A DNA stretch of 64,000 nt from NCBI GenBank assembly GCA_001778985.1, contig MFIU01000001.1, positions 126,001-190,000 of the forward strand, read 5' to 3'. The stretch is from Candidatus Giovannonibacteria bacterium RIFOXYD1_FULL_48_21 (GTDB taxonomy: Bacteria > Patescibacteriota > Minisyncoccia > JACPKW01 > UBA11713). Shown in pieces: positions 12,493 through 53,276 of this stretch. The translations under genes and the position numbers were made by a program. The notes under the pieces were generated by a model, which made no database searches, was not told the origin of the DNA, and saw nothing but the letters and a program-made list of their open reading frames with translations. The stretch's first letter is position 1; the number at the start of each line of letters is the position of its first letter.

Positions 12493-12501
12493 GCCGATAT
12501 T

Positions 12502-12759
12502 CTAACGCGACTTGTGCAAAATGGCGAGAATTAGAACCGACCATGAACCGACTACTCCGAGGATAAAGCTTATCATTATTGTGAAATTGTTCAGATAAAT
12601 TCCGTAAATAAACCAAGCCAACGTCCCCAGACTAAAAATTATGAAAGAGGGGATTGATATATCGTCAGCAGATTTTGTTTTGAAGATCTTATAGGCTTGA
12701 GGATAGTAGCCTAATGACATCAGTATCCCCATAACAACTGCAAATATTTCTATTAACAT
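12502..12759 (-). CDS. PQ-loop/SemiSWEET-family small transporter
   Basis: 85 aa, three TM helices, PQ motif in TM1 (YYPQAYKIFKTKSADDIS). Confidence 0.55.
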   Translation of the reverse strand: MLIEIFAVVMGILMSLGYYPQAYKIFKTKSADDISIPSFIIFSLGTLAWFIYGIYLNNFTIMISFILGVVGSWSVLILAILHKSR

Positions 12760-20714: not shown

Positions 20715-20984
20715 ATGGACCAGATTTTAGTGAAGCCGATGGTAAGCGAAAAAAATACCTTACTCTCCAGCCGAGGCGTTTATGTTTTTCAGGTGGAAAA
20801 TGAGGCCAATAAGATCACGATTAAAAAAGCGGTGGAGCGTCTTTATAAGGTGAGGGTTGAGAGAGTCAATTTAGTGAAAGTTTTACCAAAGAAACGAATC
20901 TTGCGGGGCCGGGTTGGGTTTCGTCCCGGCTATAAAAAGGCGCTGGTCTTTTTGGCCGCGGGGCAGAAAATTGATTTAACATGA
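20715..20984 (+). CDS. rplW: 50S ribosomal protein L23
   Basis: MDQILVKPMVSEKNTLL... Confidence 0.9.
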   Translation: MDQILVKPMVSEKNTLLSSRGVYVFQVENEANKITIKKAVERLYKVRVERVNLVKVLPKKRILRGRVGFRPGYKKALVFLAAGQKIDLT

Positions 20985-20985
20985 A

Positions 20986-21094
20986 TCCCGTTAGAAATTC
21001 AACCAAGATTATTATAAGATATTTTGCAGTGAGCGAACTCACCTTTGGTTTTTATAATTGCGGCAAAGGCTTATTAGTAAAATTTCTAACGGGA
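20986..21094. mobile_element. MITE-like TIR element, subtype B copy 1 (109 bp)
   Basis: TIR TCCCGTTAGAAAT / ATTTCTAACGGGA; flanked by direct TGAA (20982-85 and 21095-98); the last A of the element plus TG of the repeat form the rplB ATG. Confidence 0.6.
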
Positions 21095-21921
21095 TGAAAA
21101 CTTATCGCGCCTTCACTCCATCCCGCCGGCAGATGACCGGGATTGAATATAAAAAGATTTTAACTCGTTCCGAACCCGAGAAGAGTTTGACTTTTGGCCG
21201 GAAGAGAGCTTTCGGCCGGTCGAACCAGGGACGGATTACGACCCGTCATAAGGGCGCGGGCGCGAAACGGCTTTGGCGCGAGGTGGATTTTTCTATGGAG
21301 AAAAAAGATATTCCGGCCAAAGTGCTTTCGATTGAATATGACCCCAACCGCACCGCCTTCATCGGTCTCGCGGCCTACCGCGACGGTGCGAAGCGCTACC
21401 TGGTTTTGCCCTCCGGCGTCGGCGTCGGCGATGAAATTTTAACTTCTGAAAAAGCGCCGCTGAAGCGCGGCAACCGCTTGCCTCTTAAAAATATTCCGGT
21501 CGGCAGTCAGGTCTATAATATAGAAGTTTATCCCGGCGGCGGAGCCAAACTGGTCAGGGGCGCGGGAACCTTCGCCCAGATTCTGGCGCAGGACGCGCCC
21601 ATAACTTTGCTTAAACTTCCTTCCGGGGAGATTCGAAAATTACAGGATCGCGCTTGGGCGTCTTTGGGCCAGGTTTCGAATCAGGACGCGAATTTGGTGG
21701 TGATTGGAAAAGCCGGACGTTCGCGCTGGCTCGGCATCAGGCCCACGGTTCGCGGCTCAGCCATGAACCCCGTGGATCATCCCTATGGGGGCGGCGAAGG
21801 CCGGGCGCTCCGAGGCACCAGGCGCCCTAAAAACAAGTGGGGCAAGGGGGGGCGGGGAGTGAAAACCCGTTCCAGAAAGAAGTGGTCGGCGAGTCTGATT
21901 GTTGCGAGAAGAACGAAATAA
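21094..21921 (+). CDS. rplB: 50S ribosomal protein L2
   Basis: [14 protein letters not shown]...; start placed at the Met immediately after the element (the ORF track starts inside the element at 21058). Confidence 0.9.
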
Positions 21922-25296: not shown

Positions 25297-25482
25297 ATGG
25301 CGAAGACTTCCGTAATTGCGCGCTCAAAGAAAAAACCGAAATTTTCTAGCCGCATCGTCAGGCGCTGTTTTCGCTGCGGCCGGAAACGAGGCTATATGAG
25401 AGATTTTGAATTATGCCGCATCTGCTTTAGGGAGTTGGCTAACGAAGGCGTTATTCCCGGAATTAGGAAATCGAGCTGGTAA
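25297..25482 (+). CDS. rpsZ: 30S ribosomal protein S14 type Z (zinc-binding)
   Basis: 61 aa, CFRCGRKRGYMRDFELCRICFRE. Confidence 0.9.
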   Translation: MAKTSVIARSKKKPKFSSRIVRRCFRCGRKRGYMRDFELCRICFRELANEGVIPGIRKSSW

Positions 25483-25483
25483 G

Positions 25484-25585
25484 CCCCGTTAGAAAATCTA
25501 CATGCAATACTATTCACAAAAAATAAATATCTCTCGCAAAAACTGGTCTTGGTCGCATCAGCTTATTAGAGATTTTCTAACGGGG
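25484..25585. mobile_element. MITE-like TIR element, subtype A copy 1 (102 bp)
   Basis: 16-bp perfect TIR CCCCGTTAGAAAATCT / AGATTTTCTAACGGGG; between the rpsZ stop and the rpsH start. Confidence 0.6.
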
Positions 25586-25590
25586 TAAAT

Positions 25591-25980
25591 ATGGACCCGA
25601 TTGCGGACATGTTAACCCGAATTAAGAACGCCGCCCTTGTTAAAAAGGAGACGGTTTTAGTTCCATATTCCCAGATGAAGTTTGAGATTGCCAATATTTT
25701 GAAAGAGCGAGGCTATATTTCGCTGGTGGAGCGGCGGGGGCGCAAGAACAGAAAGTTTTTGGAACTTGGGCTGGCCTACGAACCGGACGGCTCGCCGCGG
25801 CTGCACGGCGCCAAAAGAGTTTCCAAGCCCTCCCGGCGGATTTACCGCAAAGTAGCGGAAATAAGACCGGTCCGGCGAGGTTTTGGGCTGGCAATTATTT
25901 CCACCCCGAAAGGACTCAAAGGCGACGCCGCCGCTAGGCGCGAGCGGGTCGGCGGCGAAGTTATTTGCGAAATTTGGTAA
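25591..25980 (+). CDS. rpsH: 30S ribosomal protein S8
   Basis: MDPIADMLTRIKNA. Confidence 0.9.
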   Translation: MDPIADMLTRIKNAALVKKETVLVPYSQMKFEIANILKERGYISLVERRGRKNRKFLELGLAYEPDGSPRLHGAKRVSKPSRRIYRKVAEIRPVRRGFGLAIISTPKGLKGDAAARRERVGGEVICEIW

Positions 25981-25984
25981 TTCA

Positions 25985-26086
25985 CCCCGTTAGAAAATCT
26001 ACATGCAATACTATTCACAAAAAATAAATATCTCTCGCAAAAACTGGTCTTGGTCGCATCAGCTTATTAGAGATTTTCTAACGGGG
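25985..26086. mobile_element. MITE-like TIR element, subtype A copy 2 (100% identical to copy 1)
   Basis: identical 102-bp sequence; flanks TAATTCA and TAAATG. Confidence 0.6.
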
Positions 26087-26089
26087 TAA

Positions 26090-26632
26090 ATGTCGCGATT
26101 AGGAAAAAAACCTATTTTGATTCCGAGCGGGGTCGTGGTTAAAATCCAGGGTTCGAAAGTTTCCGTCCAAGGGCCGAAGGGAGAGCTTTCGCGCGATTTT
26201 CGGAATGAGATTTCAATCGAGTCTGACGGTCAAATCGTTAAGCTTGCGCCCCGCGTCCACAGCCGGCTTTCGAAAAAACTTTGGGGCACTTACGTTTCCT
26301 TGATTAAGAACATGTTAAAGGGAGCGAGCGAAGAATTTTCCAAAAAACTTATTTTGGAGGGAATCGGTTACCGGGCCGAGCTCGCCGGCAAAGATTTGGT
26401 TCTCTTTTTGGGATTTTCGCATCCGGTAAAGTTTTCGGCTGAAGCCGGCATTAATTTTCAGGTTGAAAAAAATTTGATAACCGTTTCTGGAATCGATAAA
26501 GAAAAAGTCGGGGCTGCGGCGGCGAGGCTCCGCTCTCTTAAGAAGCCCGATCCTTACAAGGGCAAGGGTATCCGCTACGAGGGCGAGGTTATCCGCAGGA
26601 AGGCCGGCAAGAAAGCGGTCAGCACCACATAA
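26090..26632 (+). CDS. rplF: 50S ribosomal protein L6
   Basis: MSRLGKKPILIPSGVVVKIQG. Confidence 0.9.
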   Translation: MSRLGKKPILIPSGVVVKIQGSKVSVQGPKGELSRDFRNEISIESDGQIVKLAPRVHSRLSKKLWGTYVSLIKNMLKGASEEFSKKLILEGIGYRAELAGKDLVLFLGFSHPVKFSAEAGINFQVEKNLITVSGIDKEKVGAAAARLRSLKKPDPYKGKGIRYEGEVIRRKAGKKAVSTT

Positions 26633-26633
26633 G

Positions 26634-26966
26634 ATGAAATCAAAAAGATTAAGCCATCATCGAAGAATTCGGGCAAAAATTTTCGGAACGGCCGAGCGGC
26701 CGCGCCTGGCGGTTTTCCGTTCTGCGAAGCACCTCGAGGTACAGCTGGTGGACGATGCCCAGCGTAAGACCCTGTGGGGCGCGAAGGATTTAAAGATTAA
26801 AAAAGGCACCAAAACCGAACGCGCCGCCAAATTCGGCGGCGAGGCCGCGAAAGGAATTTTAGCCAAGGGTTATAAAAAAATTGTTTTTGACCGCGGCCGC
26901 TGCCAGTATCAAGGCCGCGTTAAGGTCCTGGCCGAAGCTTTAAGAAAGGGTGGTTTAGAGTTTTGA
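26634..26966 (+). CDS. rplR: 50S ribosomal protein L18
   Basis: RPRLAVFRSAKHLEVQLVDD. Confidence 0.9.
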   Translation: MKSKRLSHHRRIRAKIFGTAERPRLAVFRSAKHLEVQLVDDAQRKTLWGAKDLKIKKGTKTERAAKFGGEAAKGILAKGYKKIVFDRGRCQYQGRVKVLAEALRKGGLEF

Positions 26967-26970
26967 TTCA

Positions 26971-27072
26971 CCCCGTTAGAAAATCTACATGCAATACTAT
27001 TCACAAAAAATAAATATCTCTCGCAAAAACTGGTCTTGGTCGCATCAGCTTATTAGAGATTTTCTAACGGGG
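26971..27072. mobile_element. MITE-like TIR element, subtype A copy 3 (100% identical)
   Basis: identical 102-bp sequence; flanks TGATTCA and TAAATG. Confidence 0.6.
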
Positions 27073-30963: not shown

Positions 30964-31776
30964 ATGCCGCAGCCGGATATCTACCCCGTTAGAAGTAAGT
31001 CGCCGTCGGCGACTGCCGTTCCTTTCTCGGAACGGACTTCTAACGGGGTCTATCTCTCCGTCATAATTCCCGCGTACAACGAGGCGGAGCGATTGCCTAA
31101 AACTTTAAGAAGATTTCAGGAATATTTTCAATCCAAACCCTTTTCTTATGAGATTATCGTGGCCGCGGACGGCCCTTCTGACAATACGATTGAAATTGCC
31201 CAAAATATGGCCGCGGAGATAAAAAATCTTAAGGTTTTGGAACGAAGGCAAAACCGCGGCAAAGGTTACACCGTCCGGGAAGGGATGCTGGCCGCCCAAG
31301 GCCGCCTCCGGCTTTTCGCCGACGCCGACAATTCCACGGATATTTCTCATTTTGACAAAATGCGCTCTCTTTTTGATAAGGGCTGCGACGTGGTCATTTG
31401 CTCCCGCGACGAAAAGGATGCCCCGGGCGCGAAACAAGCGGTTCCTCAAGCGTGGCCTAAGCGCCTTTTAGGGAATATGGGAAACCTTTTTATCCAATTC
31501 ATTGCGGTTCGGGGGATTTGGGACACCCAGTGCGGTTTTAAGGCTTTTCGCTCCGCGGCGGCTCAAAATATTTTCTCGCGCGCCAGAATAAACCGCTGGG
31601 GCTTTGACATCGAAGTTTTGGCGCTGGCCCGCGCTTTGAATTATAAAATCGGCATCATCCCCGCCAACTGGATAAACGACCCCAAAAGCCACGTGAAATT
31701 GTCCGGGTATTTGCAGGTTTTGTGGGAGACCGTCAAAATAAGATGGAATTTAATGACGGGCCGATATAATTTATGA
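30964..31776 (+). CDS. family-2 glycosyltransferase (DPM1-like) carrying a 23-codon in-frame element insertion near the N-terminus
   Basis: LSVIIPAYNEAERL...IIVAADGPSDNT... Confidence 0.7.
   Translation: MPQPDIYPVRSKSPSATAVPFSERTSNGVYLSVIIPAYNEAERLPKTLRRFQEYFQSKPFSYEIIVAADGPSDNTIEIAQNMAAEIKNLKVLERRQNRGKGYTVREGMLAAQGRLRLFADADNSTDISHFDKMRSLFDKGCDVVICSRDEKDAPGAKQAVPQAWPKRLLGNMGNLFIQFIAVRGIWDTQCGFKAFRSAAAQNIFSRARINRWGFDIEVLALARALNYKIGIIPANWINDPKSHVKLSGYLQVLWETVKIRWNLMTGRYNL
30984..31048. mobile_element. MITE-like TIR element, subtype D (65 bp), inserted in frame in the GT2 gene
   Basis: TIR CCCCGTTAGAAGT / ACTTCTAACGGGG; perfect 4-bp direct repeat TCTA on both sides; 65+4=69 bp keeps the reading frame. 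Confidence 0.6.
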
Positions 31777-39842: not shown

Positions 39843-40247
39843 ATGCCGGCTTTTATACCTTCCGGGAAATTTTTGTCCTGGTTTTTAATCGGCCTTCTCT
39901 TGACCCAAGGCTGGGCGTTAATCACCTCGGCCTATTTTTATATCTGGTGGCTGGATTTACTGATGCATCTCGCCGGCGGATTTTGGGCGGGCGGTCTGGG
40001 CGTTTATCTTCTCCGAGAAACTCCGCTCTCTAAATTTTTATTTTTCTTGACGGTGGTGAGTTTCGCGGCTTTAGTCGGAGTGCTGTGGGAATTTTTTGAA
40101 TTTATGACCGATCCGCTCTGGAGCATCTTGGGCCGCGAGACTTTTTTTCAAGCAGGGCTGGAAGATACTTTGGGAGATTTGTTGTCCGATCTCGTCGGCG
40201 GAGCGCTGGCCGCTATCCTTTTCCGAAAAGAAGAAAAGAAATTATAA
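39843..40247 (+). CDS. hypothetical small membrane protein
   Basis: 134 aa, 4 TM helices. Confidence 0.35.
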   Translation: MPAFIPSGKFLSWFLIGLLLTQGWALITSAYFYIWWLDLLMHLAGGFWAGGLGVYLLRETPLSKFLFFLTVVSFAALVGVLWEFFEFMTDPLWSILGRETFFQAGLEDTLGDLLSDLVGGALAAILFRKEEKKL

Positions 40248-40261
40248 TTAGGGGTAATGAA

Positions 40262-40370
40262 CCCCGTTAGAAATTCAGACGAGGCTATCATAAGATATTT
40301 TACATTGAGCAAATTCGCCTTCGGCTTTTTTAACCGCAACAAAAGTTTATTGGTAAAATTTTTAACGGGG
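40262..40370. mobile_element. MITE-like TIR element, subtype B copy 2 (109 bp, ~78% identical to copy 1)
   Basis: TIR CCCCGTTAGAAATTC / AAATTTTTAACGGGG; direct TGAA flanks (40258-61 and 40371-74); the last G plus TG form the GTG start of the downstream gene. Confidence 0.6.
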
Positions 40371-41737
40371 TGAAAATTTCTTTTTTCGGAGGAGCGCAAG
40401 AAGTGACCGGCTCCTGTTTTCTTTTCGATTCAGGCAAAACCAAGGTTTTGGTGGATTGCGGGCTTTTCCAGTGCCCGCGTTTTTGCGATATTCGTTCCAA
40501 AGAGCCCTTTCCTTTTAACCCTAAAGAAATTTCCGCGCTTTTTGTAACTCACGCCCACATCGACCATACCGGAAGGATTCCAAAACTGATTAAAGCGGGT
40601 TTTTCCGGGAAGATTTTTTCCACCCCGCCCACGAAAGAGCTTGCGGAACTGATGCTTTCCGATAGTTTGGGGGTGCTCGAAAAAGAAGCCAAGCGCCATA
40701 ATGAACCTTTGTTCTATGAAGAACGTGATATCGCCGCCGCGCTCGAGCTTTGGAAGGGAATCGATTATTATCAGAAACTTGAGATCGGCGATTTCAAAAT
40801 AAGACTGCTCGATTCCGGCCATGTTTTAGGGTCGGCCATGGTTGAGTTTGAGGTCGGCACCCGCCTGTCGGACGGGCAGGGGAAGAAAATAGTACTCACC
40901 GGAGACTTGGGAAATCCTCCCACCCCGCTTCTTCGAGATCCGGAGGAAGTGCGGGATGCCCAAGTTCTTCTCATTGAGTCTACCTACGGCAACCGCGTTC
41001 ATGAGAATCGGCCGGAGCGCAAGCTTAAGCTCGAGCGCGTCATCGAGGACACTCTTAAAGCCGGAGGGGTTCTGATGATTCCGGCTTTTTCTCTCGAGCG
41101 CACTCAAGAGCTTTTGGCCGAGATAGACGATTTGGTGCAGTTCGGCCGGATTCCCCAGGTTCCGATTTTTCTGGATTCGCCTTTGGCGATTAAAGCCACC
41201 GCCGTTTATAAAAAATACAAAAGTTATTTTAACAAAGAGGTGCACCTTAAAATCAAATCCGGAGACGACCTCTTCCGCTTTCCAGGACTTCGCTTCACGC
41301 TTACCACCGCCGAGTCAAAACAAATCAACGAGGTGCCGCCTCCGAAAATCATTATCGCGGGTTCGGGGATGTCGACCGGAGGACGGATTTTGCATCACGA
41401 ACGGCGCTATCTTTCCGACCCCAAGAGCACTCTTTTGATGGCGGGCTATCAGGCCGCGGGCTCATTGGGGAGGGTACTTCAAGACGGAGCCAGCGAGGTT
41501 ACGATTTTCGGGGAGAAAATCCCAGTGAGGGCCAGAGTTGAAACGCTTCAAGGTTATTCCGCCCATCCGGATCGGGAGCAGCTTCTGGAGTTCGTTTCCA
41601 AGAGCAAAGATTCGCTGGAGGAGGTTTTCGCGATTCAGGGCGAACCAGCGTCGTGCCTTTTCATGGTGCAGCGGATTCGGGATTATTTGGGGATTGACGC
41701 CTCGGCGCCGAAATACGGAGAAACATATGAAATATGA
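40370..41737 (+). CDS. beta-CASP family MBL-fold ribonuclease (RNase J/CPSF-like)
   Basis: VDCGLFQ, VTHAHIDHTGRIP, beta-CASP motifs; apparent GTG start created at the element junction. Confidence 0.65.
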   Translation: MKISFFGGAQEVTGSCFLFDSGKTKVLVDCGLFQCPRFCDIRSKEPFPFNPKEISALFVTHAHIDHTGRIPKLIKAGFSGKIFSTPPTKELAELMLSDSLGVLEKEAKRHNEPLFYEERDIAAALELWKGIDYYQKLEIGDFKIRLLDSGHVLGSAMVEFEVGTRLSDGQGKKIVLTGDLGNPPTPLLRDPEEVRDAQVLLIESTYGNRVHENRPERKLKLERVIEDTLKAGGVLMIPAFSLERTQELLAEIDDLVQFGRIPQVPIFLDSPLAIKATAVYKKYKSYFNKEVHLKIKSGDDLFRFPGLRFTLTTAESKQINEVPPPKIIIAGSGMSTGGRILHHERRYLSDPKSTLLMAGYQAAGSLGRVLQDGASEVTIFGEKIPVRARVETLQGYSAHPDREQLLEFVSKSKDSLEEVFAIQGEPASCLFMVQRIRDYLGIDASAPKYGETYEI

Positions 41738-42418: not shown

Positions 42419-43524
42419 AGACGATTGAGGGGCTGGGGCTCTTGTTGGGAATGATTATAGGCGCAGGGCTTTTCGCCCTGCCGTATAGTTTTTTAAAATC
42501 CGGAATTTTGTGGGGCGGCTTGCTTTTTGTTTTAGTTTTTCTGATAAGCTGGCTTTTGCATTCGCTCTACGCCGCCATAATCTATATCACTCCCGGTAAA
42601 CACCGCTTCCCCGGATACATTAAATTACATCTGGGCGAGCGAGCGGAAACTCTGGCGGCGATTTTCACCTTTCTCTCTTACTACGGAGCTATGCTCGCCT
42701 ATGGCCTTTTGGGCGCGATTTTTCTCCAGACTATTTTTGGGCTTGATTTTTTATGGAGCGGAATTTTATTCTTCATCGCCGGGGGAGCGCTCTTTTTTTT
42801 GTCGCTGCGGGTGGTTGGAAAAATAAATTTCTATCTCACCCTCCCGCTTTTGGCCTTCATCCTTATTCTGGTGGTCCAATTATTTCCGGATGTGGCGAGA
42901 GAAAACTTTACCCTGCCGTCCGGCCCGGACTTTCTCCTGCCTTACGGAGTTTTTCTCTTCGCTTTCGGAGGGTACGCCGCCCTTCCGGATTTGCATGATG
43001 TTTTGGGCGCCAATCGGAGAAAACTTTCCAAAAAAATAATTTTTGCGAGCCTCGCGATTTCGGCTCTTTTTTACCTCATTTTCATTCTCGCGGTCCTGGG
43101 CGCCTCCGGCGCCCGGACTTCCCCTGACTCTTTCTCCGGGCTTCTGCCAGTCGCGGCGGGGAGCGTGGTTTTAATCGGTTCTATAATCGGAATTTTAACC
43201 GTATTTACATCGTATATCGTCTTCGGCGTCGATTTAAAACTGACTTTCCGTTACGATTACAAATTTTCAGAGGCTCATTCCTGGATTTTGGCGTTCGGAC
43301 CGCCTATTTTGCTTTTCGCTTTTGGCTTTACTGACCTGATTAAAATTTTGAGCCTCGTCGGCTCGGTCGGCCTCGGGGTTTTCGCGGTTTTTATTTTGCT
43401 GATTTCCTGGCGGGAGCGCGAAAAACTCGCGTCTTTTCTGGGTTTTGTCCCGCGGGCCTGGTGGCTTTTGCCTTTGGGAATTTTGGTTGTTCTGGGCGCC
43501 TTGCAGGATATACTTAATCTATGA
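42415..43524 (+). CDS. amino-acid permease (HAAAP/Trp-Tyr permease-like)
   Basis: 11 TM; N-terminus GLLLGMIIGAGLFALPYSF. Confidence 0.5.
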   Translation: MKTIEGLGLLLGMIIGAGLFALPYSFLKSGILWGGLLFVLVFLISWLLHSLYAAIIYITPGKHRFPGYIKLHLGERAETLAAIFTFLSYYGAMLAYGLLGAIFLQTIFGLDFLWSGILFFIAGGALFFLSLRVVGKINFYLTLPLLAFILILVVQLFPDVARENFTLPSGPDFLLPYGVFLFAFGGYAALPDLHDVLGANRRKLSKKIIFASLAISALFYLIFILAVLGASGARTSPDSFSGLLPVAAGSVVLIGSIIGILTVFTSYIVFGVDLKLTFRYDYKFSEAHSWILAFGPPILLFAFGFTDLIKILSLVGSVGLGVFAVFILLISWREREKLASFLGFVPRAWWLLPLGILVVLGALQDILNL

Positions 43525-43525
43525 A

Positions 43526-43628
43526 TCCCGTTAGAAAATCTACGAGCTTTTATATTTTAGATTCAAGCATTCTTGTTTTAGAGGGTCGGCTATGGTCAAG
43601 TCGGCCTATGGTAGATTTTCTAACGGGA
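43526..43628. mobile_element. MITE-like TIR element, subtype C (103 bp)
   Basis: TIR TCCCGTTAGAAAATCTA / TAGATTTTCTAACGGGA; direct TGAA flanks (43522-25 and 43629-32); the last A plus TG form the downstream ATG. Confidence 0.6.
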
Positions 43629-44869
43629 TGAAAATAGCGGCGGACCTTCATATCCATTCCAAATTCTCCCGGGCGGTTTCCAAGGAGATGACTTTGGAGA
43701 ATTTGGATACTTGGGCGAGAAAAAAAGGCATCAATGTTTTGGGTACAGGGGATTTCACGCATCCGCAGTGGTTTAGGGAAATAAAAGCCAAGCTTGAACC
43801 AAGCGAGGCAGGACTATACAAATTAAAGGGTTCTGATTCTGGAACGAGATTCATTCTGACGGTGGAAATTTCGAATATCTACACCAAGAATAAAAAAGGC
43901 CGAAGGGTTCATAACTTAATTTTCGTGCCGACCATCGAAGCGGCGGAGAAAATTAATGAGCGTTTGGGCTGGCAGGGGAATTTGCGCTCGGACGGCCGTC
44001 CGATTCTGGGTCTCGATTCGAAAGAACTTTTGAAAATTGTTCTCGACATTGAGCCCCGTTCGCTTTTTGTTCCGGCTCACGCCTGGACGCCTTGGTTTTC
44101 GATTTTCGGCTCCATGTCCGGTTTTGATTCCATCGAAGAATGTTTTGACGAGTATTCAAAATATATTTATGCGATTGAAACCGGGCTCTCTTCCGACCCG
44201 GCCATGAACTGGCGGCTTTCGAAGCTAGATAAAATCGCCTTGATTTCAAATTCGGACAGCCATTCCTTGGAGCGAATCGGACGGGAAGCCAATGTTTTCG
44301 ATTGCGAGCTTTCTTATGACGCGATTGTCGAGGCGATAAAATCCAAAAATCCCAAAAAGTTTCTCTATACCATCGAATTTTTTCCGGAAGAAGGAAAGTA
44401 TCACTATGATGGGCACCGGCTTTGCAATTTTTCACAAGACCCGGCCGTGACCAAAGAGAAAGGCAAAATCTGTCCAGTCTGCAAGCGGCCGATGACCATC
44501 GGAGTTTTGTACCGGGTGGAAGAGTTGGCGGATAGACCATCCGGAACAAAACCGGCCAATGCCGTCCCCTTTAAGAGTTTGGTCACGCTCGATAAAATTA
44601 TCGGCGATGCTTTGGGAGTGGGTGAGAAGTCAAAAGCCGTGCAGAGAGAATATGAAAGTTTGATTCAAAAGTTCGGAAACGAGCTCGCGGTTTTGCTTGA
44701 TGTTCGGGAATCTGATTTGAAATCCGCCACAGATTCACGAATTTCCGAAGGAATTTTGAAAGTCCGCGAAGGCAAGGTGAAAGTCACACCCGGCTATGAC
44801 GGCGAGTATGGAAAAATTTCCATTTTTAATGCCGAAGATTTAAAAGTCCCCCAAGAGAGTTTATTTTAA
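43628..44869 (+). CDS. PHP-domain protein with C-terminal zinc ribbon
   Basis: MKIAADLHIHSKFS (PHP motif I), conserved His/Asp in later motifs, CPVCKRP. Confidence 0.5.
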   Translation: MKIAADLHIHSKFSRAVSKEMTLENLDTWARKKGINVLGTGDFTHPQWFREIKAKLEPSEAGLYKLKGSDSGTRFILTVEISNIYTKNKKGRRVHNLIFVPTIEAAEKINERLGWQGNLRSDGRPILGLDSKELLKIVLDIEPRSLFVPAHAWTPWFSIFGSMSGFDSIEECFDEYSKYIYAIETGLSSDPAMNWRLSKLDKIALISNSDSHSLERIGREANVFDCELSYDAIVEAIKSKNPKKFLYTIEFFPEEGKYHYDGHRLCNFSQDPAVTKEKGKICPVCKRPMTIGVLYRVEELADRPSGTKPANAVPFKSLVTLDKIIGDALGVGEKSKAVQREYESLIQKFGNELAVLLDVRESDLKSATDSRISEGILKVREGKVKVTPGYDGEYGKISIFNAEDLKVPQESLF

Positions 44870-47286: not shown

Positions 47287-47407
47287 TCATTAAAGCTGGA
47301 AATGTAGGGCTGTCTTACATTTTCGAAGCTGTGGTCCTTTAACTCACCTCTGCGAAAAAGGCTATTCGCAGAAGGTTATGCTCCCAATGGGAAGCGAAGG
47401 AGGTTTT

Positions 47408-48058
47408 ATGAAGCCAAGTTTTGAACAAGGGATTTTGTTTGACCGGAATGTCGTAGAACTCAAGGCGAAGCTTGACCACGACGAAATGCAACGGCTGATT
47501 GAGGGCTTCAATCTTGTCTACGGCATCGCCAAAGGCAAGGTCAAGAGAACGGCGTCAGTATTATTAAATCTTGTCGTTTCCGGAGTGAGCATTACCGCAG
47601 CGCCCGCCGCGAAAACGGATGACTGTTTCAAGGTCGGGGACGGCGTCTTCGCTTATCGTGACCAGGATTTTGACCGCTGGTTGCCGGCAACGGTTCCGGC
47701 CGTGGGCGCGGGCAACGCCTCGACGTTTGAGTTTGAAATAGATCTCAACTTTCAGGAAATTGTAGAGGCGCACCTCGGCACCAAAGGCTCAATCGATGAG
47801 CTCAAAAAAGCGCTTATCGAGAATGGAAAGTGCTGGAGCCCGAAGCAGATAGATAAGCTCATCCGCAACTGCGAGAATGGCGACAATCCCTTAAAACTGC
47901 GGACTGACGGCTATGCCAATTTCTTCTTTATTGATATTGGCGGCGGCGTCTTCGCGGTCAGCGCCTATCGGTTCTCGGACGGCTGGGACATGTATGTCTA
48001 CGAGTTCGCGGACACCAATCGCTGGCGCGTCGAGGACCGCGTTTCTTTCCGCAACTGA
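47408..48058 (+). CDS. DGR target protein (variable C-terminus)
   Basis: strong SD GAAGGAGG 5 nt before ATG 47408; the last ~36 codons are the VR. Confidence 0.7.
   Translation: MKPSFEQGILFDRNVVELKAKLDHDEMQRLIEGFNLVYGIAKGKVKRTASVLLNLVVSGVSITAAPAAKTDDCFKVGDGVFAYRDQDFDRWLPATVPAVGAGNASTFEFEIDLNFQEIVEAHLGTKGSIDELKKALIENGKCWSPKQIDKLIRNCENGDNPLKLRTDGYANFFFIDIGGGVFAVSAYRFSDGWDMYVYEFADTNRWRVEDRVSFRN
47947..48055 (+). repeat. DGR variable repeat (VR)
   Basis: 109 bp, 89% identical to the TR; all 12 mismatches fall at positions where the TR has A. Confidence 0.8.
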
Positions 48059-48089
48059 TTCTTTGTTTCTTTGTCCCTCCGCATCCTAA

Positions 48090-48120: not shown

Positions 48121-48326
48121 ATCTTTTTTAATGCTATACTCAATATGAATTTCGCTGGCATCCCCGGTCAAGGCTTGGGGTGGCGAAATTCCGGTCTGAA
48201 ATTTTTATTTCCGCCCGTCAAAAAACAAACAGTTGGTGCGGTCTGCTAGGAAACATTAAGGTTTCAAATACTATACAGCCCCGAGAGTATTCAAAGGGCA
48301 GTGGATTGGGCGGCAGGCGGCACGAA

Positions 48327-48435
48327 ACGTCTTCGCGGTCAACGCCAATCGGAACTCGGACGGCTGGAACATGAATGTCAACGAGTTCGCGAACACCAAT
48401 CGCTGGAACGTCGAGAACCGCGTTTCTTTCCGAAA
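48327..48435 (+). repeat. DGR template repeat (TR)
   Basis: nine AAC/AAT codons aligned to diversified VR codons. Confidence 0.8.
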
Positions 48436-48789
48436 CTATTTGTTTTCTCCCGCTGCGCTCTGGCGGGAGTTTTTGCTCCAACCGTAGAGCATTTTCCCGA
48501 CCTCATTCAGATGCTTGGAAAGCAGAATATACTTTTTATTGTTAAGCATCTTTATTTCCCAAGATACTTGCAGAAAGAATTTAAGAATGTCCAGTTTATT
48601 TTGGGCTTTATCCAAATACGGCAATTTCTCTTGTCTCGGCAGATAACTTGCTATGAATAACGATTCAAGGGTTTCCAGGAAGAGTAAATCTATTTTAGCG
48701 CCGAGCGTCAGGCGCAATGTTTTTGGGAGATTTTCAAAAACCCCATGCCACGATTTGTAGACCGCAACCAAGCGCCCGATGATGAGCAC
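48436..48789 (-). CDS. avd: Avd-like four-helix-bundle protein (accessory variability determinant)
   Basis: 117 aa; C-terminal LNEVGKMLYGWSK resembles the TIGR02436/bAvd EIGxxLxGW tail; GTG start; opposite strand to TR/RT. Confidence 0.55.
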   Translation of the reverse strand: MLIIGRLVAVYKSWHGVFENLPKTLRLTLGAKIDLLFLETLESLFIASYLPRQEKLPYLDKAQNKLDILKFFLQVSWEIKMLNNKKYILLSKHLNEVGKMLYGWSKNSRQSAAGENK

Positions 48790-52466: not shown

Positions 52467-52975
52467 TTTTTCTCGATGATAAGATGGATTCCGCGCGGCC
52501 CCTGTTTCGGCCCTTCGGAGACTTTGTAGTCCCGCGGAATGAAATGCAGTATTCGCTCCATTCTCTCTTTTATGAAATTTTTGTCAAGATATTTTGCCCG
52601 GCCTCTTAACGCGAGCCCTATTTTTACCTTGTCGCCTTCGTCCAGAAACTCGCCGATTTTCTTCGCTTTCATCTCCAGGTCGTGCTCCGAGGTGTTTAGC
52701 CCCACCCGTACTTCGCGCACCTCGGCGAGGTGGGCCTTTTTGCCCGCCTCCCGGCGCTTTCTATCCTGCTGGTAGGACCACTTGCCGAAGTCCATTATTT
52801 TGACCACCGGAGGCTTGGCCGTGGGAGAGATTTCGATTGCGTCCAGCCCTTTTTCCTGGGCAATTCTAAGGGCCTCGGAAATTTCAATGACACCATAGTT
52901 GGTGCCATCATCGCCGATAACCCTGACGGGGTTCGCGATTATCTGATTATTTATTCTAACGCGCTCTTGAGCCAG
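52463..52975 (-). CDS. infC: translation initiation factor IF-3
   Basis: the ORF track shows only the C-terminal domain (52463..52807); the conserved N-terminal domain (ERVRINNQIIANPVRVIGDDG...ISPTAKPPVVKIMDFGKWSY) continues in frame upstream with no ATG, so a non-AUG start (AUU/AUA/CUG type) is likely; 5' end approximate. Confidence 0.75.
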   Translation of the reverse strand: MAQERVRINNQIIANPVRVIGDDGTNYGVIEISEALRIAQEKGLDAIEISPTAKPPVVKIMDFGKWSYQQDRKRREAGKKAHLAEVREVRVGLNTSEHDLEMKAKKIGEFLDEGDKVKIGLALRGRAKYLDKNFIKERMERILHFIPRDYKVSEGPKQGPRGIHLIIEKK

Positions 52976-53006
52976 ATAGTTTAATTATAGAGTAATTGAA
53001 TTTTGT

Positions 53007-53276
53007 TGTGGAGATGGCGGGAATTGAACCCGCGTCAGAAGAAATTTTGAACCGCGGTTGACAGGCTTAAAACTTTTGAAGGTTTTTCTCGCTTATAACA
53101 CCCGCGACCCTCTAGCGAGAATCAAGGACGGATGCTTACACAGACTTAATTAAGCAACTGCGTAAGAAGGTTGGAATAAGTTTGCACTTACTACATTGAG
53201 AGATTTTTAAGAGCTAACTCTCGTCCTCTGCCTGAGCGCCTGCTCAAACTTTTCCTCCTCGAGGCCGATCATCCCC
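53007..53276 (-). ncRNA. ssrA: tmRNA (ssrA), about 270 nt
   Basis: 5' GGGGATG pairs with 3' CATCTCC-A (G3:U wobble), T-arm GCGGG-TTCAATT-CCCGC, tag reading frame GCA AAC TTA TTC CAA CCT TCT TAC GCA GTT GCT TAA (ANLFQPSYAVA*) at 53150-53185. Confidence 0.65.

Follow-up and report, generated by a model that had tools for sequence, protein, structure and literature searches.

A small inverted-repeat element that rebuilds start codons at gene junctions of a Candidatus Giovannonibacteria genome

Element copies in the window

The window analysed here is a 64-kb stretch of the genome of Candidatus Giovannonibacteria, a member of the Candidate Phyla Radiation (CPR), for which near-identical contigs are known from Rifle aquifer assemblies. 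It contains seven copies (B1, B2, C, A1-A3 and S; 65-109 nt) of a small element that is bounded by a 13-bp terminal inverted repeat (TIR; YCCCGTTAGAANN...NNTTCTAACGGGR), starts with (T/C)CCCGTTAGAA and finishes with TTCTAACGGG(A/G). The longest open reading frame (ORF) inside the window copies spans 38 codons, and no transposase gene is present in them. Four of the copies are housed by the S10-spc ribosomal-protein operon, all six long copies are oriented as the genes around them, and the identities of the genes at the copy sites are confirmed by Pfam. All copies are given below on the forward strand.

B1, B2 and C, as read directly from the sequence, are 103-109 nt long and are flanked on both sides by the direct repeat TGAA. 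B1 separates rplW from rplB: the left target-site duplication (TSD), TGAA at 20982-20985, holds the rplW stop TGA (20982-20984), the original ATG is retained at 20981-20983 (from direct reading and empty sites), the 109-nt element (TCCCGTTAGAAATT...AATTTCTAACGGGA, 13-bp TIR TCCCGTTAGAAAT / ATTTCTAACGGGA) occupies 20986-21094, and the right TGAA follows at 21095-21098. The rplB start codon (ATG, 21094-21096) therefore consists of the final base of B1 (A21094) and the TG of the right TGAA, while the TGA at 21095-21097 terminates an ORF that runs through the element. Copy C has the same layout (TGAA 43522-43525; 103-nt element with T...A ends and a 19-bp perfect TIR, 43526-43628; TGAA 43629-43632): its left TGAA holds the stop TGA (43522-43524) of a Trp/Tyr-type permease, and the rebuilt ATG (43628-43630) opens an EndoQ-like/PHP_C gene. 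Thus the arrangement of TGAA, element, TGAA and rebuilt start that an earlier note had described at 20982-21098 and 43522-43632 was recovered coordinate by coordinate.

At B2 (TGAA 40258-40261; 109-nt element with C...G ends, 40262-40370; TGAA 40371-40374) the rebuilt start is GTG (40370-40372), which opens a beta-CASP/RMMBL RNase-J-like gene and was chosen by gene callers in five of the five assemblies shown. The GTG start that the earlier note had assigned to the terminal G of B2 thus stands, while the site differs from the other two in having no stop/start overlap: the stop codon of the preceding gene (40245-40247) is followed first by an SD-like (Shine-Dalgarno) motif, AGGGG (40250-40254), and then by the original ATG (at 40257). 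B1 (T..A ends) and B2 (C..G ends) are siblings with 80% nucleotide identity. The rebuilt starts are confirmed by ortholog lengths for rplB (L2 of 275 aa, 100% coverage in nearest relatives) and for the EndoQ-like gene (413 aa vs 413/414 aa).

The short copy S lies inside a family-2 glycosyltransferase gene (30980-31052), where a 65-nt element (30984-31048) is flanked by TCTA on each side and constitutes, with one TCTA, a 69-nt (23-codon) in-frame insertion following codon 7.

Empty sites and recent mobility

In-silico removal of B1 and one TGAA gave tttaacATGAAAACTTATCGCGC, which was found in three contigs of close relatives (L121, L122 and L123; L2 proteins 93-95% identical) save a single C/T change in the coding portion, which is synonymous. 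The rplW/rplB junction tttaacATGAAAACT was identical in these three contigs and in a fourth, L135 (~91% nucleotide identity), and the element-free site reads ...TTTAACATGAAAACT... in all four. The earlier note had placed B1 at a former rplW/rplB ATGA overlap, had proposed this very comparison of the reconstructed site with element-free orthologs, and had named orthologous empty sites free of the overlap as the observation that would speak against it; the overlap is present in the empty sites of all four contigs, and therefore the insertion interpretation survives.

For C, the claim of a former overlap was borne out by the closest relative, L126 (EndoQ ortholog with 83% identity), which has the permease/EndoQ ATGA overlap ctatctATGAGAATA and no element. 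It did not extend to the more distant L127 (79% ortholog), where the same ATGAAAATAG start is found and the permease/EndoQ overlap is absent. Moreover, L135 is element-free at all five of the sites on its contig (B1, A1-A3 and S).

Copy S is a presence/absence polymorphism in the population. Contig L140 matches the window at ~100% identity but is without the S element and has one TCTA only (L140 5435-5520), so that the empty site ...ATATCTATCTC... can be compared directly with the occupied site ATCTA-C...G-TCTAT. The comparison proves that the element itself contributes the terminal C and G, and that 4 bp rather than 6 bp were duplicated. After removal of S, the N-terminus of the glycosyltransferase (MPQPDIYLSVIIP) agrees with orthologs. 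Since S is absent from a ~100%-identical contig, the element has moved, or has been excised precisely, very recently.

Could the element instead be an ancestral spacer that was deleted in relatives, or an artefact of assembly? Repeats do collapse assemblies here, as two assemblies without the S8 gene illustrate (see below). On the other hand, several assemblies made independently from different samples contain the same copies, the element-free state is common to relatives at 76-95% identity, and the direct repeats together with a cross-phylum distribution favour insertion; we therefore give this explanation almost no credence. The element combines a TIR, a TSD checked at the B1, C and S empty sites, small multicopy form without a transposase, and presence/absence polymorphism, which are the marks of a MITE (miniature inverted-repeat transposable element).

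A cross-phylum family with a TNNA target

One genome per species was scanned with the pattern CCCGTTAGAA-N60-90-TTCTAACGGG, in which TIR positions 2-11 and the range of lengths are set in advance; matches fell on at least 120 contigs, and all census counts given here and below (139 copies, with subsets of 136, 75 and 36) are among the matches listed. About half of the contigs are from CPR, the rest being from Omnitrophota, Planctomycetota, Desulfobacterota/Deltaproteobacteria, Nitrospirae and others.

Perfect 4-bp direct repeats flank 82 of the 139 copies vs a chance expectation of 1/256 per copy, thus the flanking repeats are not due to chance. The duplications take the form TNNA, the most common being TGAA (16), TTTA (13), TAAA (12), TTCA (10) and TGAG (6), and TTAA/TTAA was not observed among the 139 copies. 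The outer flank base is a purine on the left in 76% and a pyrimidine on the right in 70%, which defines the target as R|TNNA|Y. The terminal pair is C..G in 81 copies and T..A in 47. Complementarity between the two arms is 93% at TIR position 1, 88% at position 12 and 85% at position 13, and drops to 44% at position 14; positions 1, 12 and 13 vary, yet remain complementary. Interiors are mostly unrelated across genomes (108 of 136 copies are singletons).

The same flanks bear on whether the duplication is in fact 6 bp (RTNNAY), with the start-completing base coming from the target and not from the element. Many copies have flanking hexamers identical at six of six positions (e.g., ATGAAT/ATGAAT), and the outer flank base is associated with the terminal base of the element (odds ratio ~5). 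However, this association vanishes in non-start copies, and the individual sites disagree with a 6-bp duplication: at S the terminal C and G are new relative to the empty site, at B1 the empty site is ATGAAA and the left copy ATGAAT, and at B2 the left hexamer is ATGAAC and the right one GTGAAA. Thus a 6-bp duplication is highly improbable, and the base that completes the start codon is derived from the element.

Tandem or nested copies with a common flanking repeat were also seen (L013 7674-7895; L104 2560-2710); they fit a process in which each insertion recreates two new target-like sites. Ribosomal-protein and nearby operons (S3, L2, SecY, S8, S17 and RpoA) recurrently host the element in unrelated CPR genomes (contigs L087, L115, L074, L149, L181, L200, L008 and L178), including a copy at the S8 start in L115, as at A1 in the window. 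In another recurrent context, the left flank ACTTGT stands beside the element and ATGAAA or ATGCAA past its right end (L178 1436-1499, L182, L192, L184 and L198; also L046, L108 and L115), the L178 copy being located between an IF-1-like ORF and a short L36-like ORF (L36 assigned by eye). These ACTTGT-flanked copies have the look of an orthologous insertion of some age, in which the right arm has decayed and a duplication can no longer be recognised.

The Rfam search returned no match on any copy at gathering score or relaxed E-value, the best sub-threshold match being MtlS (18.6 bits vs a cutoff of 80). A scan of viral contigs gave six matches, five of them one conserved phage locus, which had no flanking duplications and were judged unrelated or uninformative. 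A literature search on the TIR sequence gave chance primer matches only, and searches on MITEs in CPR or at start codons did not find the family described. The element apparently belongs to a MITE family that spans many phyla, rebuilds start codons with its terminus and has not been described before.

Association with start codons and the terminal base

After reconstruction of the empty sites, the insertion point coincided exactly with the start codon of an ORF of 80 codons or more in 31 of the 75 duplication-bearing copies (41%), and in eight cases this start was part of an ATGA overlap. Counted from the occupied side, the terminal purine plus TG opens an ORF of at least 80 codons in 48 of 136 copies from more than 100 genomes (35 ATG and 13 GTG), in line with the suggestion of the earlier note that a purine terminus followed by a TG duplication preserves starts; overall, the start-codon occupancy is ~35-40%. 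Among the 590 RTNNAY sites of the window, 517 are in genes, 59 intergenic, 6 at stops and 8 at starts. Starts thus make up 8 of the 73 (11%) non-disruptive sites vs 41% of the copies (Fisher p = 3e-5), i.e., start codons are enriched among the occupied sites.

The two terminal pairs are distributed unequally: T..A ends were found in 34 of 47 start-codon copies vs 11 of the 78 copies away from starts (p = 8e-11, odds ratio 16), and in CPR genomes only, the split is 27:5 vs 7:25. At TIR positions 12-18, T..A and C..G copies are indistinguishable. A-ended copies concentrate at starts without being a separate lineage.

The rebuilt starts open recognisable genes. Ten downstream genes were checked with Pfam and all are housekeeping or otherwise identifiable: TopA, UvrD, AtpA, FtsK, a class II aminoacyl-tRNA synthetase, S8, S17, two sugar-nucleotide/glycosyl transferases and a DUF5667 protein. 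The first Pfam domain mostly begins within ~10-25 residues of the rebuilt start (residue 3 for Toprim, 4 for S8 and 10 for UvrD), and later in FtsK, the class II aminoacyl-tRNA synthetase and the DUF5667 protein. As for copies within genes, four of the five found elsewhere have a length that is a multiple of three, like S. A skew of length modulo 3 among intergenic copies was set aside, being confounded by subfamily lengths.

Such a distribution might be left by survivorship alone, if an ordinary MITE has a TNNA target that happens to include TGAA and its start-codon copies are the harmless leftovers, the terminal purine being a need of the transposase and the internal ORF a by-product. With 88% of the RTNNAY sites in the window inside genes, selection would remove the majority of insertions; TAAA/TTTA sites, which are unconnected with starts, account for half of the copies, and the failure of TIR positions 12-18 to separate T..A from C..G copies points the same way. 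However, the occupancy of starts is ~4-fold above their share among tolerated window sites, A-ended copies are rare off starts and dominant at them, and an open reading is 3-5 times as frequent in the frame of the original ATG as in either of the other frames (see below). We regard survivorship alone as possible but doubtful.

The mini-ORF, the RNA fold and translation of the rebuilt start

In B1, B2 and C alike, a mini-ORF starts at the original ATG, remains open through the element and stops at the TGA of the right TGAA. In B1 it spans 38 codons plus the stop (20981-21097) and has an ATGA overlap at both ends; in B2 it spans 38 codons (40257-40373) with an ATGA overlap at the downstream end; and in C (43521-43631; peptide MNPVRKSTSFYILDSSILVLEGRLWSSRPMVDFLTG followed by the stop) the overlap is again at both ends. 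B1 and C therefore each form a chain of upstream gene, ATGA, mini-ORF, ATGA and downstream gene. Since one base, the 4-bp duplication and the terminal pyrimidine precede the arm, the frame is always open in the left arm, where it reads CCC GTT AGA.

Across the family, the original-ATG frame is open through the interior in 16 of 36 start-codon copies, compared with 3 of 36 and 5 of 36 for the other frames (p = 2e-4). The mini-ORF ends in an ATGA overlap in nine copies and at a right-arm TAA, 7 nt before the start, in eight. The encoded peptides are unrelated across start-codon copies, and the ~68% amino acid identity of the B1 and B2 peptides (counted from these two peptides), set against the 80% nucleotide identity, gives no sign of selection on the peptide. 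Both the lack of conservation and the early stop of the mini-ORF in more than half of the start-codon copies are what survivorship would predict for a by-product.

The sequence upstream of the rebuilt start is the repeat arm, hence no SD is possible there. In the predicted RNA fold, a terminal stem closes the element, and the rebuilt AUG has its A and its U base-paired within this stem; the fold of B1 has -31.7 kcal/mol (z -4.4), and the terminal-stem z-scores of the copies range from -2.7 to -7.7. A test for G-U excess in the stem as a mark of RNA-level pairing was negative.

Stable stems, together with the four copies in the S10-spc operon, the recurrence of ribosomal-protein operons as hosts in other genomes and the orientation of all long copies as the genes, would suit intercistronic RNA modules of benefit to the host, i.e., hairpins that are kept because they tune mRNA processing, stability or the expression ratios of cistrons. 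Yet close relatives are element-free at all five covered sites, S is polymorphic within one population, the interiors are unrelated between genomes, neither an Rfam family nor a G-U excess in the stem was found, and the TSDs are a signature of transposition. Retention for such a function is therefore quite unlikely.

Another set of explanations has the insertion neutralised at the level of the RNA or the ribosome: the hairpin would be looped out, letting the original SD or the upstream stop act on the rebuilt start without an intermediate, as in the split ribosome-binding site of phage T4 gene 38, or hopped over by the ribosome from the left repeat to the right one, or cleaved by RNase III to give a near-leaderless mRNA. 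A closed stem would bring the left flank to the rebuilt start (at B2 with a spacing from SD to start of ~7-8 nt), the 4-5 nt shared by the two sides are reminiscent of the take-off and landing sites of a hop, many copies lack a through-running ORF, and several copies sit on leaderless-looking starts. However, the predicted stem engages both the A and the U of the rebuilt AUG in base pairs, enrichment of the open frame is unexpected under hopping, loop-out or cleavage, and copy S is simply read through in frame. We consider these routes unlikely.

Coupling by unwinding is probably the most economical model of translation. Ribosomes would initiate at the retained left ATG, unzip the stem in which the rebuilt AUG otherwise has its A and U base-paired, stop at the ATGA overlap or at the right-arm TAA 7 nt upstream, and re-initiate; alternatively, the unwinding might simply expose the rebuilt start. 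The relay of this model does not account for all copies: an SD-like motif and a coupled upstream stop are both missing from 15 of 36 start-codon copies, several of which look leaderless, so that the relay can be only part of the explanation. In L028, L044, L057, L110, L111, L001 and L042 the retained ATG has no SD and is preceded, at a distance of 6-8 nt, by a TATAAT-like box, which suggests that these copies may have landed on the start codons of leaderless genes.

A probable start-preserving MITE

We consider it probable that, taken as a whole, B1, B2 and C are copies of a non-autonomous DNA transposon, a MITE, that preserve the starts of the genes into which they inserted. The element is ~65-110 bp long and geneless, with a 13-bp TIR, and duplicates TNNA within the preferred target R|TNNA|Y. 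On insertion into an RTGAA start context, the original start and its upstream signals (an SD or an overlapping stop) remain at the left end, while at the right end the copy of TGAA is placed directly after the terminal purine of the element. Because the right end is always a purine, an ATG (in T..A copies) or a GTG (in C..G copies) is recreated before an untouched coding sequence, and because the start is recreated, insertions are tolerated even in essential, translationally coupled genes. Intragenic insertions would be purged except for in-frame ones. The intact start codon thus explains the presence of the element inside essential ribosomal-protein operons, and offers a case in which a transposon lives in the most essential compact operons (S10-spc) of minimal CPR genomes and the host survives.

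Several observations weigh against this interpretation. Only about one third of the copies are at starts, the others being at stops, intergenic or in frame within genes; B2 did not insert at a stop/start overlap; and A1-A3 lack a clean 4-bp duplication and fall outside the TGAA scheme. A through-running ORF is present in only ~45% of the start-codon copies, many of which stop after 6-25 codons, and the 15 of 36 without SD-like motif or coupled stop have been mentioned. Starts in the other genomes were called by ORF length, with the Pfam check covering ten cases, and some of the listed copies are related, so that the census counts are not fully independent. Thirteen copies have flanks of inverted type (left TTCA/TTTA, right TGAA/TAAA), with the pair TTCA/TAAA in three unrelated genomes and TTTA/TGAA in five, and the reverse combination once. 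Finally, no autonomous element or recurrent transposase with these ends was found in ~1.3 Mb of flanking sequence.

A more specific proposal, which we put forward only tentatively, is that the MITE lineage has a self-neutralising, start-codon-seeking design: A-ended copies would prefer A|TGNA start codons, regenerate ATG from their final base and keep an open, sequence-free relay ORF, through which ribosomes coming from the original start would unzip the 13-bp terminal stem before re-initiating on the gene; the lineage would be mobilised by a transposase, possibly piggyBac/IS1380-related, that is common to CPR and non-CPR bacteria of the same habitats. If so, the essential operons of streamlined CPR genomes could be colonised at almost no cost. 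With its relay ORF, the element is also a natural setting in which to examine re-initiation independent of an SD, as well as the translation of hairpin-masked starts.

Search for the transposase and comparison with known elements

In the ~1.3 Mb of flanking sequence, unpaired TIRs led to no autonomous element and no long-range TIR pair enclosing a transposase was found, and clustering of 689 ORFs gave housekeeping clusters only. Two candidates for an autonomous element were rejected: L104 holds an ordinary ATPase gene, and the ACTTGT-flanked copies are short elements at infA/rpmJ. The 13-bp end and the TNNA duplication provide a simple signature with which to search for the cognate transposase.

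The closest functional parallel is offered by the MIRUs (mycobacterial interspersed repetitive units), mobile repeats at start codons and intercistronic junctions of operons, which carry an internal ORF coupled by a 4-nt ATGA overlap and are described as Mycobacterium-specific (PMC12548453). This coupling is thought to minimise the cost of insertion (2025 review PMC12548453, citing Supply et al. 1997). Like MIRUs, B1, B2 and C have a mini-ORF with ATGA coupling to the downstream gene; unlike MIRUs, the element occurs as single copies with TIR and TSD in many phyla, rebuilds the start from its own terminal purine, and has its through-running ORF in only part of the start-codon copies, as given above. 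MIRUs form variable-number tandem arrays (VNTR), and we know of no TIR or 4-bp target duplication in them. Thus a principle earlier noted only for mycobacterial MIRUs now extends to a TIR/TSD element across many uncultivated phyla.

In being small, flanked by TIR and TSD and free of a transposase, and in its stable RNA hairpins and transcribed intergenic location, the element resembles bacterial MITEs such as Correia/NEMIS, ERIC, RUP, MITEAba12 and Chunjie (PMC3184786, PMC6382973). Chunjie is reported to have entered an operon and left it undisturbed, and the MITEAba12 duplication is 9 bp. The Correia duplication is TA, and the termini (YCCCGTTAGAANN) and TNNA duplication of the element differ from those of all five. 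In the literature searched, systematic start-codon occupancy with regeneration of ATG or GTG was not found described for other MITE families. Copy S, fused in frame within a gene, is like the Rickettsia palindromic elements (PMC3184786); the likeness is one of location only, and in-frame intragenic copies are a minority of the present family. Neisseria REP2 and Borrelia inverted-repeat sequences are likewise repeats directly upstream of genes that supply expression signals including the ATG, whereas the element gives one base of the start codon and no ribosome-binding site. IS200/IS605-derived palindromic elements and REP/BIME insert 3' of a fixed tetra- or pentanucleotide and are not known to duplicate their target; such an identity is ruled out by the 4-bp duplication proven at the empty sites.

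For the missing transposase, piggyBac and its prokaryotic relative IS1380 are a lead only. piggyBac has a TTAA duplication and TIRs with CCC-type starts (PMC10813416). The element shares with this group a 4-bp T...A duplication; unlike piggyBac, it duplicates TGAA, TTTA, TAAA, TTCA etc., with TTAA not observed. Its ends read Y+CCCG, in which CCC is present at an offset of one base from the piggyBac motif. The 13-bp TIR of piggyBac is CCCTAGAAAGATA. No IS1380-like transposase with these ends was found, nor did the IS1380 literature provide end sequences for comparison.

A-type copies and consequences for assembly and annotation

A1-A3 are near-identical and occupy three junctions of one ribosomal-protein operon: A1 (102 nt, 25484-25585) lies between the S14 stop (25480-25482) and the S8 ATG (25591) with flanks TAAG / TAAA, A2 (25985-26086) between the S8 stop (25978-25980) and the L6 ATG (26090) with flanks TTCA / TAAA, and A3 (26971-27072) between the L18 stop (26964-26966) and the S5 ATG (27076). 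Over 113 nt, a stretch that takes in the flanks (ATTCA...TAAATG), A2 and A3 do not differ, and comparison of both with the empty sites of L135 defines a 107-nt unit, CA-element-TAA, between TT and ATG and no duplication of 4 bp. The A copies also contain an internal ORF (peptide MQYYSQKINISRKNWSWSHQLIRDFLTG followed by a stop; in A2 from ATG 26003 to TAA 26087-26089), the TAA of which abuts the gene ATG in A2 and A3, whereas in A1 a gap of 2 nt separates the two. A metagenome scan with the A/C-type arm recovered the same A1 locus and other subfamilies, and did not explain the A-type flanks.

In two public assemblies, L138 and L139, A1 runs directly into A2 and the S8 gene between them is missing (vs window 25484-26092), because identical repeats collapse in assembly. 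CPR assembly is thus affected by the element, as is the annotation of CPR metagenome-assembled genomes: in C, gene callers begin the EndoQ-like gene at an in-frame ATG (43592) inside the element, which gives 425 aa (P0121) vs 413-414 aa for the orthologs and adds 12 spurious residues. Similarly, the mechanical ORF for rplB begins at an in-frame TTG (21058) inside B1.

Two other features of the window were noted. The 11-mer CGCGTTAGAAT, which is arm-like and has no partner, occurs twice (12499-12509 and 52953-52963, minus strand), and the tmRNA gene (53006-53276, minus strand) has its 3' end ~40 nt from one of the two copies. A direct repeat of 118 nt with 87% identity (47947-48064 and 48328-48445, 381 nt apart), unrelated to the element, lies within or beside the ORFs at 47378-48058 and 48301-48660.

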